DNA of 41,440 bases from a virus (taxonomy: Duplodnaviria; Heunggongvirae; Uroviricota; Caudoviricetes): IMG/VR virus record IMGVR_UViG_3300037245_003487, positions 1-41,440 of that record. One strand, written 5' to 3'. Positions within the stretch are counted from its first letter, which is position 1; every line of letters starts with the position of its first letter. The notes beneath the pieces are model-generated. The model saw only the letters and a program-made list of their open reading frames with translations. It did no database searches and had not been told where the DNA came from. Of the stretch, positions 6,993 to 41,440 are shown piece by piece. A program made the position numbers and the translations under genes.

Positions 6993-7460
6993 ATGAAAAA
7001 AATAAACTGGATTATAATAATTGTGCTTATAACACTTATGAGTTGTATTTACCCATGGGTTCCAGAGGATAACAGTGGAGTTAGAGGTGATTTATCTACA
7101 GATGTTATAGTCGTGACTGCAACACCATCACCAACTTCTACTGCTACTCCAACCGCAACTGCTACTCCAACAATTGATTTACCATGTATCTTAGGTATGT
7201 GGCAAAGAACAGGATCAACAGGATCGATAGCAACTTATAATTTTAGAAGATGGAAAAATGGTTATTATAGAAGAATAAATTCAAGTAGGGATAAAGATGT
7301 TACTGGATCTTGGTCTATAGTGAATGAAAAACAAATAAGATTACATGAAGATGGATTATATAGTATGGTATTTGATCTCACATGCGATGGACAATCGATT
7401 TGGCTTAGAAATACAACTGCTGGAAGTGACAATCATGCTTACAAATTTAATAAAATGTAG
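6993..7460 (+). CDS. putative lipoprotein with Thr/Pro-rich linker
   Basis: LITLMS-C lipobox-like; TATPSPTSTATPTATATPT; ILGMWQ beta-domain start. Confidence 0.75.
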   Translation: MKKINWIIIIVLITLMSCIYPWVPEDNSGVRGDLSTDVIVVTATPSPTSTATPTATATPTIDLPCILGMWQRTGSTGSIATYNFRRWKNGYYRRINSSRDKDVTGSWSIVNEKQIRLHEDGLYSMVFDLTCDGQSIWLRNTTAGSDNHAYKFNKM

Positions 7461-11198: not shown

Positions 11199-11368
11199 TG
11201 ACTGAATTTATAGGAAGTGCATTATTGATGATAGTATTATTTTTCATGCTTTGGTCCGTTATATGTTGGTTCTGGATTGGAGTAATAGCATTTATTATAG
11301 GCGTTATGGTATTTATAATTGCTAAATGTATTATACTTGGAATATTATTTTGGTGGTTAAGGAGTTAA
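11198..11368 (+). CDS. small membrane protein
   Basis: Start moved to ATG 11198 (TAATG overlap); almost entirely hydrophobic. Confidence 0.65.
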   Translation: MTEFIGSALLMIVLFFMLWSVICWFWIGVIAFIIGVMVFIIAKCIILGILFWWLRS

Positions 11369-11369
11369 T

Positions 11370-11648
11370 ATGTGTAGATGTCAACCAGAAGTAAGAACTC
11401 CATTTTGTGGAAGACCAGGATGTGAATGGCCTCAAAGTGAAGCTGAAAAAGCTGCAATGAAATGTCCTGTATGTGGAAAGGCTGTAGCTTTGATGGAAAT
11501 AAAAACAGAAACCTCATTTTTTAATTATAAAGCAATAGAAAAACTTGCTGAGTGGAAAACCTGGAAACTCGGAAAACATAGAGCACATTTTGAGTGTTCT
11601 AATTGTGGATGCCAGGTTATTCTACCAGGAGATGCAAAATTTGAGTAA
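11370..11648 (+). CDS. Cys-rich (zinc ribbon-like) phage protein
   Basis: CRC...PFCGRPGC, CPVCG, CSNCG. Confidence 0.75.
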   Translation: MCRCQPEVRTPFCGRPGCEWPQSEAEKAAMKCPVCGKAVALMEIKTETSFFNYKAIEKLAEWKTWKLGKHRAHFECSNCGCQVILPGDAKFE

Positions 11649-11838
11649 TTTTGAACAAATGACAAATATGGCTTTGAATATATTGGAAAATTTCAATATA
11701 AATATGACTAATATGCTTCAGGACGAACATTTAGAGCAATGGAAACTTATGCATGGAAATTATCTACATGATATTAAAATGGTTGGAAAACCTAGAAAAG
11801 AAATAAATAAATTAGAAGTGGAGGTGAATTTTAAATGA
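11632..11838 (+). CDS. hypothetical protein
   Basis: In-frame ATG 11632 after CAGGAG; fills gap. Confidence 0.55.
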   Translation: MQNLSNFEQMTNMALNILENFNINMTNMLQDEHLEQWKLMHGNYLHDIKMVGKPRKEINKLEVEVNFK

Positions 11839-12089
11839 TATTATTAGAAAGTTGTTTTTATAAAGTGGTTAAAATTAAAAAGAAAACTAAAGCTTGTATG
11901 TTTAAAGATCTTAAAATTGGCGATGAGTTGCAATTCTCAATACCAATCCAATCTGCGGGCAGTAACAGAGGCACTTATGCGTCTTATATAAAAATAGCAT
12001 GTATAACAAATGGTAATTACACCACTAAATCTTTTAATCAAATTGGAAGTTGCTTAAATAATTTTGAGTTAGAGGAATTAATATGGTAG
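11835..12089 (+). CDS. hypothetical phage protein, paralog of 18673..18951
   Basis: AxMFxxLKxGD...GS..G...FEL shared. Confidence 0.8.
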   Translation: MILLESCFYKVVKIKKKTKACMFKDLKIGDELQFSIPIQSAGSNRGTYASYIKIACITNGNYTTKSFNQIGSCLNNFELEELIW

Positions 12090-12289
12090 ACATAAAAGCG
12101 TTAACCGAAAAAGATATCGGGAAATGGGTTACTTACGAACCAGGACATAAAAAAGAATCTGGAAGAATTAAGTCTTGGAATGGCACATGGGTATTTGTAG
12201 TTTACAACTGTGATGGATATTGGCATCGATATGATGAATTTACCGCAGCTGCTACAAATCCACGTGATTTAAAAATTAAAGGAGGATAA
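12083..12289 (+). CDS. hypothetical phage protein (small beta domain)
   Basis: DIGKWVTY...GRIKSWN..WVFVVY..TAAAT.PRDL. Confidence 0.75.
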   Translation: MVDIKALTEKDIGKWVTYEPGHKKESGRIKSWNGTWVFVVYNCDGYWHRYDEFTAAATNPRDLKIKGG

Positions 12290-12293
12290 AATT

Positions 12294-12608
12294 ATGATAT
12301 TATTTTTAATAGTACTAGGATTAGCGATGGCATTTATAGGATTATTTTTAGCACTATGGGGCGATGACGAATTGGAAAAATGGGCTGTTGGAATTGGGCT
12401 TATAATGTGTATTGGTGGCGCTATAATACTTATATGCGGACTTTCGATGAATGATAAATCTATAGAGCCAGAACCAATAAAGGAAGTTATAGAAGTAACT
12501 CCAATTCCACAAATAACGCCAACTGTAACTCCACAGATTACGCCGAACTATAAAATAGTTATACCTGATAACCAGGGAGTTATTAATATTTACTTAGGAG
12601 ATGAGTGA
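12294..12608 (+). CDS. 2-TM protein with PT-rich linker and C-terminal NxG[VT][IV]NIY motif
   Basis: VTPIPQITPTVTPQITP...DNQGVINIY. Confidence 0.8.
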   Translation: MILFLIVLGLAMAFIGLFLALWGDDELEKWAVGIGLIMCIGGAIILICGLSMNDKSIEPEPIKEVIEVTPIPQITPTVTPQITPNYKIVIPDNQGVINIYLGDE

Positions 12609-12973
12609 TGAGGAAATGGATATTGTTAGCGCTATTACTAATAGCTATTTTTAGCTGTAATGATGAAAAAATATTATGTGAATTTAGTCATATAGAAAAT
12701 GTAATAAATAAAAATTACTGTGTATTTTATGAAGGCGATAAACAACATATAATAAAAATTTATGATGATATAGCTTTTTTGAAACTTAAAAATTTAAAAA
12801 AAGGTGATAATTTCTATCTATCAACAATCAATAGTGACATAGATCATTATGAGTTAACTATATATAAAGAATTATCCCATTCGAGTCCAAAAAAACCTGA
12901 GATAACACCGTTGCCAGATCCTAAAATAGACATAGAAAATAATGGAACTGTCAATATCTATATGGAGGAATAA
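12605..12973 (+). CDS. putative lipoprotein with C-terminal NxG[VT][IV]NIY motif
   Basis: LLIAIFS-C; PEITPLPDP...ENNGTVNIY. Confidence 0.8.
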   Translation: MMRKWILLALLLIAIFSCNDEKILCEFSHIENVINKNYCVFYEGDKQHIIKIYDDIAFLKLKNLKKGDNFYLSTINSDIDHYELTIYKELSHSSPKKPEITPLPDPKIDIENNGTVNIYMEE

Positions 12974-13332
12974 TGTACGTAAATATAATAAAAGATCATA
13001 TAAGAAAAAAAATAGAAATATGTGAGGATGATGGATTTACAGATTGGCCTGAAAGATTCCTAGAAATTTGCGATGAAATAATAGATAACTATGGAGAAAG
13101 TACTTGCAAAGATATAGTATTACATGGTCAGTACAATTCATATCTATGCCCATTTTGCGTTCGTGAATGTGAAATTAAAGGAACTAAGTGTGCAGAATGT
13201 GAATTTGGTAAAAGATTTGGGCAATGCGCAAGTGACGAAGATAACTTATTTGATTTACTTCCATTAACATTAGATGTATGGCCAGAATTAATTGAAATCA
13301 ACGAGAGTTATGGAGTGTTTATAGATGGCTGA
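12973..13332 (+). CDS. Cys-cluster protein, probable paralog of 14714..15124
   Basis: CPFC...CxxC.F.K....C. Confidence 0.75.
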   Translation: MYVNIIKDHIRKKIEICEDDGFTDWPERFLEICDEIIDNYGESTCKDIVLHGQYNSYLCPFCVRECEIKGTKCAECEFGKRFGQCASDEDNLFDLLPLTLDVWPELIEINESYGVFIDG

Positions 13333-34803: not shown

Positions 34804-34854
34804 ACTTTAACATTTTTGATTCAAAAGTAAAGATATTTTACATTTAATTTACAA
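34804..34854 (-). promoter_or_regulatory. sigma70-like promoter with conserved upstream tandem boxes
   Basis: TTGTAA-N6-TGTAAA-N5-TTTACT-N16-TAAAGT with TG extension. Confidence 0.7.
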
Positions 34855-38252: not shown

Positions 38253-38304
38253 ATAATAACATATTTTAAATATAAAGTAAAGTCTATTTACATTTTGCTT
38301 ACAA
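38253..38304 (-). promoter_or_regulatory. sigma70-like promoter with conserved upstream tandem boxes
   Basis: TTGTAA-N6-TGTAAA-N5-TTTACT-N17-TATTAT with TG extension. Confidence 0.7.
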
Positions 38305-38311
38305 AAAACAT

Positions 38312-41020
38312 TTAAACATTACCTTGTAGCTTAACTCTTTTTTGCCTTGTCATCTCAGCATCATTACCCATGTCCATTTGTGCAAAACAATCCTCAAGTA
38401 ATAAAAGTCCATCAATTGATACAGGAAATTTCTTTAAATATTCTTTCAATGCTATCAAGCATTCTCTATACAACTCTTTACTAAAATACATTTTAGCCAT
38501 ATTCAATAAAAAACTATCAAATTGATCAGTTTCAGCCATAACTTCTTTTAACTGTTCCATTCCTGCATATGTATCCTGAAGCAATAAAGCTAATCCATAC
38601 TCAAATTTATATCTTTGGTTTCCAGGACATGTATCTATAAGTTTTTTATAATATTTAACTGACTTACTTATTTTGCCTACGTGATGATATGTAGTGGCAA
38701 GTCCCCATAAAGCCTGTTCGTTATCAGGAAATAGTTTATGAGCTTTTTCTAATTGTTCTAAAGCTCCAGTAAAATTCCTTTTATCTATTTTATCTTTTTT
38801 AGGTTTTCCAAGTTTTTTTGCTGCTTCCATATAGTCATTAAACTTTATAAGATCTGTCTTATCTTCTCTATTATTAGCCTTCTCAATTGACTCCTGCCTC
38901 AATTGTGTAGATCTCATATAAATATCTTTAGCTAATTTTATCTCACCATCAGTATAATCAGGTAAGTTTGCTAAAACCCTTTTGGCATCAACATAAGGAT
39001 GACCCCAATTACCGGCTTTAAAGTATTTCTCAACATCTTTGAGATTAGCTTTTATGGGAGATCTATCTATTAATAAGCTATCATCATTTGTTTTCATGTA
39101 TTCTTTTAAAATACCTAATGACTCTTTATATATCTTACTTAGCTCTTCAGCGCCTTCAACAGCACCTTTAAGAATCATAGAATTTCTTTTGATCCTCTTT
39201 TTAAGATCAATTCTCTTTTTAACTAAAGCATCGCCTTCTGAAGATTTAACATTATATTCTTCTGCATATAACTTTCTACTATACTTATAGATATATAATC
39301 CAATTAAAGGGCTATTTATTGCTTCAGTATGAGCGATATTAGAAAACTCCTCATTTTTATCTAACAGCTCTTTTAACTCAGTAAGAGGTCGTCTTTTCTT
39401 TTGATTTAACTCTTGAATTTTATCACAAGTCTCAAGGGCTTTTTTAGAAAACTTTTTAATTTTCTTTAAACCTTCTATTTCTTCTTCTAATATAGGAATG
39501 ATAGTCTTTATGTTTTTCTTCCATCCCTGTTCTAACCCCAGGTATCTTTCTATAATAGACTTGTTTATCTTCTTCTTACAGTACTTTTTAAGCGCATTCT
39601 CTAAAGGCATCTGTATAGTGCCCTTTAATTTAGCACCACCCTCTGTGCAATTAACATATGTTTTATCATTATATACACTGAATAACCCCTCATAAGAAGT
39701 AATAAAACTAGCTAAACCAACGTTGGTTAGTACAGGTTCGCCATAGTAACCATCAACAGGTACTGCACCACCCATACTATAACTACCTTTTGACTTCTTA
39801 TCCTTCTTTAAAGTGCTACGTGGATCTTTAATCTTCCATGTTAACCCACCATTTTCATCAATTTTAATGTCGCCACCTGCATCAACGAGTGGTATATGAG
39901 ATTTATCACCTTCATATGCAAGATCTTGACCAATAAACATGATCGGATCACACTCCATCTTAAGTGCAAGACCATAACAAAAGTGACTAACACTTCCGCC
40001 CTGCTCTAAACTACCTTTTTTTTGAAGAAAACCAACACTTGTGCTTTCAGGAACATTAGCTTTTGATATTGACACAATCTTATTACCTTGCCATCTCTTT
40101 AAAATACCATCATAACTTCTATTAAGTGCAACTAAAGTTACGTCCGAGTCCCATAAACCTCTAAAATGCTCTTCATTTACCACTCCAAAATCAACTGTGC
40201 CTATAAAATCAGGTTCAATGTCATATGCCTGTAATACACGTAATGCCTGTGCAACTGCAATAATAACAATATTACCTCTATGTTCTTTTAATAAATGTAT
40301 GTTCTTTTGTAGGCTAGGGCCTGTACTCACGATAACACATGGTTTATCCCTATATATACCCTCTAACTCATTAACACCTTTATGTCTTATGATATAAGGT
40401 AAGTTAGCTATATCATTAAGCGCTATCTTATACCCTGCGCCTTCCATAGTACCTATATTACACTGCATTTGGTTAATTAGTCTCATTACATATAGGTTAA
40501 TTTCACCATAGTCATCGGTCCTAAATATAGTATAATACTCAGAAGATAGGAACCATCTTTGTACTACTTGTGTTTGATCATAAAGAGAAAACATACCAGC
40601 AATTATTCTTTCGTCATCAGTATCTATAATAGTTACCGTATCATTCTCTAGATATTTAGAAAAATTATGTAGCTCTAATGCTTTTTTAACTAAATATGTA
40701 TTAGGCTCTATAATTAATATATTATGCCCTGGATCTTTCTTCTTAACAAGTTCACTTAAATGATAACCTAATCCAATTCCAACCACAACAGTTAAATTTG
40801 ATTTAGTTAAACCATCTTTTTTAACTTTAATAACTTTTAATGGATTTTTAATATCATAAGCAGGAATTACATTTCCACCATTCTTGATTAAAAAATTTGC
40901 CATTTTATTTTTAGAATAAATTAACTCAAACCATTTTGGCTTTTCACACTCTTGAATATTTTCATATAACTTAGGAATTTTTGTCTTTATTACTTCCAGA
41001 TTTTTCTCTAGTATTTCCAT
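38312..41020 (-). CDS. Maf/DUF115 (MptE-like) family protein, putative nonulosonate glycosyltransferase, with C-terminal TPR-like repeats
   Basis: VVGIGLGYHL, IIEPN, PCVIVSTGPSLQKNIHLLK, IEPDFIGTVD, GGSVSH, IMFIGQDLAY, NCTEGGAKLKG; ALWGLATTYHHVGKISKSVKYYKKLI TPR-like. Confidence 0.85.
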   Translation of the reverse strand: MEILEKNLEVIKTKIPKLYENIQECEKPKWFELIYSKNKMANFLIKNGGNVIPAYDIKNPLKVIKVKKDGLTKSNLTVVVGIGLGYHLSELVKKKDPGHNILIIEPNTYLVKKALELHNFSKYLENDTVTIIDTDDERIIAGMFSLYDQTQVVQRWFLSSEYYTIFRTDDYGEINLYVMRLINQMQCNIGTMEGAGYKIALNDIANLPYIIRHKGVNELEGIYRDKPCVIVSTGPSLQKNIHLLKEHRGNIVIIAVAQALRVLQAYDIEPDFIGTVDFGVVNEEHFRGLWDSDVTLVALNRSYDGILKRWQGNKIVSISKANVPESTSVGFLQKKGSLEQGGSVSHFCYGLALKMECDPIMFIGQDLAYEGDKSHIPLVDAGGDIKIDENGGLTWKIKDPRSTLKKDKKSKGSYSMGGAVPVDGYYGEPVLTNVGLASFITSYEGLFSVYNDKTYVNCTEGGAKLKGTIQMPLENALKKYCKKKINKSIIERYLGLEQGWKKNIKTIIPILEEEIEGLKKIKKFSKKALETCDKIQELNQKKRRPLTELKELLDKNEEFSNIAHTEAINSPLIGLYIYKYSRKLYAEEYNVKSSEGDALVKKRIDLKKRIKRNSMILKGAVEGAEELSKIYKESLGILKEYMKTNDDSLLIDRSPIKANLKDVEKYFKAGNWGHPYVDAKRVLANLPDYTDGEIKLAKDIYMRSTQLRQESIEKANNREDKTDLIKFNDYMEAAKKLGKPKKDKIDKRNFTGALEQLEKAHKLFPDNEQALWGLATTYHHVGKISKSVKYYKKLIDTCPGNQRYKFEYGLALLLQDTYAGMEQLKEVMAETDQFDSFLLNMAKMYFSKELYRECLIALKEYLKKFPVSIDGLLLLEDCFAQMDMGNDAEMTRQKRVKLQGNV

Positions 41021-41150
41021 TTTTCTCCTCTGATTTATATCTAGCTGGCTTAGAATTTTTGATCATAGCTGGAATTCTTTTATGAAATTCATCTATGGAT
41101 CGTAAAATTTCTTCCATATACTCATCAATCATTTTTTTCGTTCTCTTCAT
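40971..41150 (-). CDS. hypothetical protein (59 aa), overlaps Maf-like start
   Basis: GGGTGAG SD-like; MKRTKKMIDEYMEEILRS... Confidence 0.45.
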   Translation of the reverse strand: MKRTKKMIDEYMEEILRSIDEFHKRIPAMIKNSKPARYKSEEKNGNTREKSGSNKDKNS

Positions 41151-41277
41151 TTAATATCTCACCCAATGCATCCTTACATCGTTCTATATAGCCTCTATCA
41201 ATCTCACATCTGGTCCTACCATCAATACGACCAGCGATATAAGCTATGATAAAGATTGGTATAAGTAGAAAAATCAT
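41125..41277 (-). CDS. 50-aa single-TM protein
   Basis: GAGAGG SD; MIFLLIPIFIIAYIAG. Confidence 0.55.
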   Translation of the reverse strand: MIFLLIPIFIIAYIAGRIDGRTRCEIDRGYIERCKDALGEILNEENEKND

Positions 41278-41438
41278 TCAACTAACCTCTCACATAGTTT
41301 GTGTATTTTATCATCGTTATCTACGATCTTTTTGAATAATTCAATTCCATCTTTTATGTCGTTGTGAAATATTACTTTTAAACAATTCATAAGTTTTTCA
41401 TTATTTTTAGCCCTTTTTTCTTTAATTTCTGCTATTTC
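41274..41438 (-). CDS. hypothetical protein, 5'-truncated by window edge
   Basis: Frame open to the edge; TGA overlaps ATG 41277. Confidence 0.5.
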   Translation of the reverse strand, partial: EIAEIKEKRAKNNEKLMNCLKVIFHNDIKDGIELFKKIVDNDDKIHKLCERLVE

Positions 41439-41440
41439 AA

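Follow-up and report, generated by a model that had tools for sequence, protein, structure and literature searches.

Why should a virus without flagellin carry a glycosyltransferase of the flagellin-modifying kind, and on what would such an enzyme act? The question is raised by a gene for a 902-amino-acid (aa) protein, P0001, in a 41,440-nucleotide window (the whole stretch of DNA analysed here, bases 1-41440 of the IMG/VR record IMGVR_UViG_3300037245_003487). P0001 joins a Maf core to a long C-terminal helical and TPR region, and the Maf enzymes known so far are, to our knowledge, all glycosyltransferases of motile bacteria that are specific for flagellin. Neither this genome nor any of 31 related viral records, nine of them complete, yielded a flagellin gene (Flagellin_N, Flagellin_C). 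Judged from its sequence and setting, P0001 is very probably a Maf-family CMP-nonulosonate:protein O-glycosyltransferase (CMP, cytidine monophosphate) of the 'bipartite' type, catalytically intact and encoded by the last gene of a phage operon.

Domain organization and predicted fold of P0001

The open reading frame (ORF) is open over 902 codons and starts at an ATG with a GAGGAG Shine-Dalgarno sequence 6 nt upstream. The parts of the gene were located by family profiles, by an AlphaFold 2 (AF2) model and by comparison with 5MU5, the solved Maf of Magnetospirillum magneticum AMB-1.

38312..41020, minus strand: Maf-TPR gene, P0001, 902 aa (ORF, ATG start, Pfam, NCBIfam, AF2, 5MU5 match)
40526..41020, minus strand: Maf N-terminal domain, about aa 1-165 (PF20157; 5MU5 alignment)
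39908..40411, minus strand: central MptE-like/Maf_flag10 catalytic domain, GT-A-like, aa 204-371, with D277, S343 and D366 (PF01973)
38873..39583, minus strand: helical domain, about aa 480-716 (from the model's secondary structure, range of the 5MU5 alignment, separate gene in a phage subclade)
38315..38863, minus strand: five-repeat TPR module, aa 720-902, putative acceptor-binding part (TPR Pfam matches, MamA-like fold)

In Pfam, the MptE-like/Maf_flag10 family PF01973 matches aa 204-371 (3.7e-43, 147.7 bits against a cut-off of 34.6), the Maf N-terminal domain PF20157 matches as well (6.7e-11, 42.5 bits against 23.5), and several TPR families exceed their cut-offs at aa 745-816. The NCBIfam model of PseD, NF050051, aligns with aa 2-375 (1.9e-41, 142.4 bits). 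Because this score lies below the cut-off of 670 and the match covers only profile positions 1-381 of 640, P0001 is a relative of PseD and not its orthologue.

The AF2 model, built on a 44-sequence alignment, reached a mean predicted local distance difference test score (pLDDT) of 92.1 and a predicted template modelling score of 0.87. Its top match among solved structures is 5MU5 (Foldseek E 1.2e-15). In VIA-align, residues 1-637 of the model align with residues 9-650 of the chain (Z 23.6, root-mean-square deviation (rmsd) 6.4, 529 residues), so that all three Maf domains are present; the helical domain up to aa 637 is the counterpart of the C-terminal domain of the Magnetospirillum protein. 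Beyond it, aa 720-902 form ten helices in the model, that is five TPRs, which superpose on MamA (VIA-align, Z 18.6, rmsd 2.9, 171 residues). The best fold matches in Swiss-Prot are two Treponema Maf-like proteins. By sequence and predicted fold, then, P0001 has the complete three-domain build of a Maf glycosyltransferase, to which five TPR repeats are added at the C-terminus. A 902-aa Maf-type ORF with a helical, TPR-like C-terminus was what the original prediction had described from the sequence, and the ORF, the Pfam matches and the AF2 model bear it out; the profile search and structure prediction it had proposed as checks returned Maf domains and the fold of 5MU5.

The residues on which Maf activity depends are E324 and D415 in the Magnetospirillum enzyme (MmMaf) and D272, S334 and D357 in the Clostridium botulinum enzyme (CbMaf) (bioRxiv 10.1101/2020.06.03.131540). 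In the HMMER alignment to 5MU5, D277 of P0001 pairs with MmMaf E324. S343 and D366 correspond to S334 and D357 of CbMaf, an assignment made by alignment and spacing, not from superposed coordinates, and D366 also takes the position of MmMaf D415. Conservation was followed in 104 sequences, comprising 43 members of the clade of P0001 and 61 cellular Mafs. Position 277 is Asp or Glu in all of them (104/104), position 343 is Ser in 103 (43/43 in the clade, 60/61 in cellular Mafs) and position 366 is Asp in 98 (40/43 and 58/61). From this conservation of the catalytic positions, which was observed directly, we infer an active transferase. Close to D277, S343 and D366, the catalytic domain contains four further residues that are invariant in the phage clade, D271, H285, H346 and D380 (window about 39881-40210, minus strand), where cellular Mafs have His at 271, Leu or Met at 285, Asn at 346 and a variable residue at 380. 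These residues may reflect a changed specificity for donor or acceptor.

The family name of PF01973 suggests another function, since its namesake MptE is a 6-hydroxymethylpterin diphosphokinase and some homologues of P0001 are labelled 'MptE-like protein'. It is most improbable that P0001 is a kinase of this type and not a glycosyltransferase. The protein has the Maf N-terminal domain and superposes on 5MU5 over three domains, it keeps the residues needed for Maf transferase activity, and its gene is operon-linked to a nonulosonate pathway. No MptE kinase was among its top fold matches (Foldseek; reviewed UniProt). The original prediction had reckoned with a true MptE kinase as the finding that would undo it; the best fold matches are Maf proteins. 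The architecture of MptE itself, a small single-domain archaeal kinase in a folate or pterin context, differs from that of P0001, which has 902 aa and several domains and lies in a sugar-pathway context.

A sugar cassette upstream of the Maf gene

A cassette of sugar genes begins 0.9 kb upstream of the Maf gene on the same strand, without an intergenic gap from the GNAT gene to Maf. The region holds the following genes, in genome coordinates.

41926-42492, minus strand: GNAT acetyltransferase, weakly PseH-like
42685-43494, minus strand: 269-aa ORF without a family
43478-44473, minus strand: Polysacc_synt_2 dehydratase, best model PseB (3.5e-83)
45393-46277, minus strand: NeuB-family synthase (PseI, 5e-30)
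46270-47535, minus strand: DegT aminotransferase (PseC, 5.5e-49)
47798-48418, minus strand: 206-aa ORF whose match to an Rnl2-type RNA ligase is weak (1e-07, well under the cut-off), not conserved in relatives
48597-49589, minus strand: GFO/IDH/MocA oxidoreductase
49574-50092, minus strand: inserted NUMOD4-HNH homing endonuclease, not conserved in relatives
50508-51269, minus strand: CTP_transf_3 cytidylyltransferase

Since these genes lie directly upstream of Maf, the phage supplies its own donor pathway. The PseB-like, PseC-like, GNAT, NeuB-like, GFO-type and cytidylyltransferase products would together make a CMP-activated nine-carbon sugar resembling pseudaminic (Pse) or legionaminic (Leg) acid. 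The pathway matches score 279 bits against the NCBIfam equivalog cut-off of 408 for PseB, 167 against 423 for PseC, 105 against 340 for PseI and 35 against 93 for PseH. The cytidylyltransferase is closest to KdsB-type models, and the GFO-type oxidoreductase, conserved in relatives, is an addition to the canonical pseudaminic pathway. Because the matches stay below the equivalog cut-offs, no PseG-type hydrolase is recognised and the oxidoreductase is extra, the predicted product can be named only as a Pse/Leg-like nonulosonic acid. The original prediction had noted the absence of sugar-synthesis genes and expected the donor from the host or from elsewhere in the genome. The latter proved right, with the cassette at 41926-51269, and the absence was true only up to the edge of the window; the search of the rest of the genome for pse, leg and neu genes, which it had recommended, yielded PseB-, PseC-, NeuB-, GNAT- and cytidylyltransferase-like genes.

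The Maf gene as the end of a phage operon

Upstream of P0001 there are small ORFs of 59, 50, 97, 60 and 61 aa that abut or overlap one another; downstream there is a promoter and then a 205-aa ORF. As only the five small ORFs separate the GNAT gene from Maf, the interval could not accommodate a separate transcription unit.

40971..41150, minus strand: 59-aa ORF with a 49-nt overlap at the Maf start (ORF list)
41125-41277, minus strand: 50-aa ORF (ORF list)
41274..41440, minus strand: window part of the 97-aa ORF, which runs to genome 41567 (neighbour-ORF clustering, alignment, AF2)
38277..38302, minus strand: sigma-70-like promoter with upstream GTAA/GTAAA boxes, 10 nt past the Maf stop (genome motif scan)

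The promoter at 38277..38302, recognized by its motif, marks the end of the Maf transcription unit. It belongs to a class, GTAA-N7-GTAAA-N5-TTKAC followed by a -10 box, of which the motif scan found about 18 good copies in the genome; those in the window are at 1962, 4244 and 15105 on the plus strand and at 34827, 36716, 38149 and 38277 on the minus strand. All copies fall in the parts with small ORFs and with metabolism and replication genes (0-83 kb and 120-122 kb). One, at 50468-50493, is inside the cassette, just downstream of the cytidylyltransferase gene and directed towards Maf, and another, at 53805-53830, is upstream of the cassette. Of the earlier description of the flanks, the small overlapping ORFs and the promoter stand, whereas the statement that no pse genes flank the locus held only because the window ends at 41440 and the GNAT gene starts at 41926.

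In 31 loci the position immediately upstream of Maf is taken by a conserved helical protein of about 60 aa (for example L012:2238-2435 and L018:9808-9999; L numbers designate loci of the comparison). It has invariant Arg, Asn-Asn, Met, Ile and Asp positions, and in about half of the loci a stop and a start codon overlap. The 97-aa ORF is a diverged copy of this protein, for which AF2 predicts a helix hairpin (pLDDT 85-91 over the conserved part). No Pfam family matched the conserved protein, which could be a GlfM-like specificity factor; the predicted complex with Maf (score 0.00, partner pLDDT 46) weighs neither way.

The module in a lineage of phages

The source record is 122,610 bp long with 29.8% GC, a 127-bp direct terminal repeat (DTR) and a CheckV completeness of 100%. 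Its genes include those for an HK97-type capsid protein, an S78 prohead protease and an intein-containing portal, a tail sheath, tail terminator, tape measure and the Mu-type baseplate proteins gp44/P, gp45-48 and J, as well as the large terminase, a DnaB helicase and an M23 peptidase. The genome yielded no tyrosine integrase. The source is thus a complete and apparently virulent myovirus, not a chimera. Its nearest cultured relative by capsid protein, Azospirillum phage Cd, shares only 41.5% and therefore gives no clue to the host. An HNH-type ORF of 289 aa follows directly on the capsid gene (genome 107098-107967, minus strand), and the intein of the portal protein lies at genome 110757-112535, minus strand.

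A tblastn search of P0001 against 50,697 deposited phage genomes gave no match, nor did megablast of the region. A single-sequence scan of IMG/VR found no relatives either, and an alignment-based scan was needed; it recovered 54 loci, and in 51 of these, on contigs reaching 110 kb, the relative is full-length. Nine of the related records are complete DTR genomes of 58-110 kb. Among metagenome proteins more than 200 homologues were found, the best 120 of which have 796-1010 aa, 35-51% identity, 87-100% query coverage and the same MptE-plus-TPR make-up.

Precomputed gene calls in two contexts gave the same order, cytidylyltransferase, GFO, DegT, NeuB, PseB, GNAT and Maf, beyond which lie convergent genes for tail fibres and a Mu-type baseplate. 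Counted over the 38 distinct loci whose upstream flank measures 8 kb or more, all six sugar genes are kept in 22 and five in 11, and the canonical order is kept in 33; a convergent baseplate J gene follows Maf in 25 of 32 loci. The coupling to sugar genes and the conservation of the module in the phage lineage are in this way directly visible. Capsid relatives lie on the same contigs as the Maf relatives. Eight capsid-related records without Maf are all fragments of 30-44% completeness, and so are uninformative as to whether the module is core or accessory. GC content at the Maf-bearing loci runs from 25 to 60%, which suggests very diverse hosts.

In 185,579 species-representative cellular genomes, full-length relatives were confined to short contigs of metagenome-assembled genomes (MAGs) and one real chromosome, that of a Desulfarculia (L070). 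Contigs of the lineage (L064-L069) are binned in GTDB MAGs of Melioribacteraceae, Alphaproteobacteria, WWE3, Woesearchaeota, Desulforudis and Thermodesulfobacteriota. Two of them are identical to IMG/VR viral contigs, and the group likely represents mis-binned phage contaminating reference genomes.

The deposition of homologues in MAGs of several phyla might point to a host-phage assembly chimera or to host contamination at the Maf locus. Such an artefact is extremely unlikely: the genome has its DTR and full CheckV completeness, GC is continuous across the junction, an identical gene order beside Mu-type baseplate genes recurs in dozens of independent contigs from different samples, and the MAG contigs with homologues are short or identical to viral ones, i.e. 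mis-binned phage. That the Maf is phage-encoded, as first supposed, is confirmed by the complete DTR genome and by the module in about 50 viral contigs; the chimeric contig that the original prediction had named as a threat is contradicted by the DTR, the continuous GC and the recurring gene order.

With cellular Mafs of 620-680 aa (Riflebacteria, Deferribacteres, Acetivibrio, Syntrophomonas and others) P0001 has only the region from aa 1 to about 540 in common, at 24-28% identity. In a maximum-likelihood tree the proteins of about 900 aa form one clade (Shimodaira-Hasegawa-like approximate likelihood ratio test, 100%); the tree holds those cellular Mafs that match patterns drawn from the phage family and is not a full Maf phylogeny. 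The comparison with cellular Mafs and viral homologues that had been called for thus placed P0001 in a clade of its own, with 51 full-length relatives in IMG/VR. Within the phage clade stands the L070 protein (1009 aa, L070:9947-12976), beside a viral contig of similar GC (58.5% and 59.7%). The approximately unbiased (AU) test against phage monophyly gave p 0.044, a weak result for a group named after seeing the tree and with compositional attraction possible. The L070 island (Desulfarculia MAG chromosome 2, 60826-83720) comprises a 563-aa flagellin, a GT2, a PseB-like gene, a 556-aa Maf and the 1009-aa Maf-TPR, for which transfer from phage to cell is possible.

Fused and split forms of the enzyme

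A search with aa 480-902 among 1.84 billion representatives returned 107 proteins at E <= 1e-30. Nearly all are Mafs of 850-950 aa with the module in the same position, and about twenty are stand-alone proteins of 415-525 aa. In the IMG/VR loci L050-L056 Maf is naturally split: the first ORF, of 454-470 aa, corresponds to aa 2-450, and the second to aa 538-902 in the five loci that reach far enough, with 490-498 aa in L052, L054 and L056. The two ORFs may be adjacent or separated.

L054:9968-11380 and 11361-12845: split Maf, ORFs adjacent
L052:9980-11362 and 11793-13265: split Maf, 121-aa ORF between
L056:6401-7795 and 11835-13331: split Maf, ORFs about 4 kb apart

An Rfam search found no intron in the interrupted genes of L050-L056, which are therefore genuinely two ORFs. 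As judged from these arrangements, the helical/TPR part is a separable module tied to the phage Maf clade. In Shewanella Maf-1 the acceptor is bound by the TPR region, and systems change between fused and multi-component forms (bioRxiv 10.1101/2023.12.03.569772). The suggestion that the TPR region selects the substrate gains a published precedent here, since the Maf-1 region binds to flagellin, and by analogy the region in P0001 may do likewise with its own acceptor.

What is the acceptor?

In the cytoplasm of the infected cell, P0001 would transfer the sugar to Ser/Thr residues of whichever protein its helical/TPR part binds. If the acceptor is one or more phage virion proteins, the outcome would be a particle with an acidic sugar coat. 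We tentatively favour this reading, in which the Maf-TPR enzyme, with a sialic-acid-like sugar made by the phage, O-glycosylates the phage's own virion proteins in a widespread myovirus lineage of 58-123 kb. The preference is suggested by the conservation of the module across the lineage, the genome cost (8-17% of a genome of 58-123 kb goes to the cassette), the virulent-looking lifestyle and the tail-fibre and baseplate neighbourhood. Virions are assembled in the cytoplasm, where Maf works. In mycobacteriophages, phage-encoded glycosyltransferases reportedly decorate the phage's own capsid and tail proteins, a precedent by analogy attributed to Freeman and colleagues in 2023, as cited in PMC12619734. 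The finding of no tyrosine integrase makes a host-surface conversion of the temperate type less likely.

Several observations weigh against virion proteins as the acceptor. No virion acceptor candidate was identified, and no decoration protein was found among the structural ORFs of unknown function with PHROGs and Pfam, the 289-aa ORF after the capsid gene being an HNH endonuclease. The donor is left undefined by sugar-pathway matches that are all below the equivalog cut-offs, and no PseG-type hydrolase was recognised by NCBIfam among the cassette genes. The cassette lies outside the structural block, and its promoters share the class that drives small early ORFs, a class that the genome motif scan did not find in the structural block at 83-120 kb; from the consensus alone, expression looks early or middle, not late. 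Every experimentally known Maf acceptor is flagellin (PMC4065374; bioRxiv 10.1101/2020.06.03.131540), the TPR region of Shewanella Maf-1 binds flagellin (bioRxiv 10.1101/2023.12.03.569772), and the only chromosomal clade member, that of Desulfarculia, lies 2.2 kb downstream of a flagellin gene.

The points on flagellin and on promoter timing are also those that speak for host flagellin as the acceptor, together with the place of the Desulfarculia protein inside the phage clade and in an island with flagellin, PseB and a second Maf. Flagellin re-glycosylated during infection could block flagellotropic competitors, avoid the loss of progeny on debris, or alter or maintain motility. We regard this as possible, if rather unlikely. 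Filaments already built would remain unmodified, 8-17% of the genome is a high price for an apparently virulent phage without integrase, and the GC range of 25-60% across loci suggests very diverse hosts. The nesting of the Desulfarculia protein is weak, given the AU value, the post hoc group and the high GC it has in common with its sister.

Acceptors of a third class would be host proteins other than flagellin, whether a pilin or S-layer protein or one with a defence or regulatory role, a phage protein that is not structural, or a glycan in place of a protein. Acceptor and donor promiscuity is reported for the Maf of Clostridium botulinum (PMC11339370), the invariant D271, H285, H346 and D380 set the phage clade apart within the catalytic domain, and no acceptor was identified in this analysis. 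Positive evidence for any such target is lacking and the TPR region points to a protein partner, so that we think an acceptor of this class improbable. Glycosylation of DNA bases finds no hint, since a thymidylate-synthase-like hydroxymethylase is absent from the genome.

Proline/threonine (PT)-rich proteins had been put forward in the original prediction as candidate substrates.

Window 6993-7460, plus strand: PT-rich predicted lipoprotein, lipobox LMSC
Genome 64798-65070, 65070-65390 and 68565-69155, minus strand: PT-rich membrane-anchored proteins

Maf-dependent glycosylation is cytoplasmic and precedes export (PMC4065374). In the PT-rich ORFs a lipobox or an N-terminal membrane anchor should place the PT linkers outside the cytoplasm, and the proposal was abandoned because this is the wrong compartment. 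Their sequences look like those of exported phage proteins, with roles for example in superinfection exclusion or lysis.

Implications

In the full-text literature, with most subscription journals outside its coverage, no description of a phage-encoded Maf or of a phage nonulosonate protein-glycosylation module was found. P0001 is a clear member of the Maf family; what is new is the viral setting without flagellin, the distinct phage clade of about 900 aa, and the occurrence of fused and split forms. Donor pathway and Maf module are a conserved part of virus genomes that lack flagellin. Should a virion protein be the acceptor, it would be the first non-flagellin acceptor of a Maf and the first nonulosonic-acid coat on a phage particle, with bearing on adsorption, on stability in sediments and groundwater and on immune recognition in phage therapy. 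If host flagellin is the acceptor, the phage would be manipulating the motility or receptors of its host in a new way. With either acceptor, the module would be a compact, self-contained nonulosonate glycosylation system for glyco-engineering, and the natural fused and split enzymes offer a handle on how Maf chooses its acceptor.

Comparison with known systems

The virion glycosylation of mycobacteriophages, to which the favoured reading appeals by analogy, differs from the P0001 system in enzyme families and sugars, and involves neither nonulosonic acid nor Maf. The Maf of Magnetospirillum magneticum AMB-1 resembles P0001 in that the three domains superpose, E324 corresponding to D277 and the D415 position to D366. 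The two proteins differ in sequence, with 15% identity, and 5MU5 is devoid of the five-TPR extension; D271, H285, H346 and D380 are invariant only in the phage clade. The Desulfarculia Maf-TPR belongs to the same clade as P0001, to which it is about 32-38% identical along its whole length, TPR region included, and it also adjoins a PseB-like gene. Unlike P0001, it is encoded on a 2.6-Mb chromosome, where a flagellin gene lies 2.2 kb away and the 556-aa Maf alongside, with no phage genes within 10 kb.

The nearest characterised parallel in layout is Maf-1 of Shewanella oneidensis (So3261-type, 822 aa), which like P0001 has a Maf_flag10 core followed by a long C-terminal helical/TPR region (bioRxiv 10.1101/2023.12.03.569772) and is encoded beside a Pse pathway. 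Its TPR region binds the acceptor in a two-hybrid assay and is indispensable; by analogy, acceptor binding is putative for the corresponding region of P0001. Maf-1 is a cellular protein of a motility island that acts on FlaA/FlaB, whereas P0001 is encoded in a phage genome without flagellin. In contrast to Maf-1, a phage subclade keeps core and TPR region as two genes, and the likeness between the two systems is one of domain layout.

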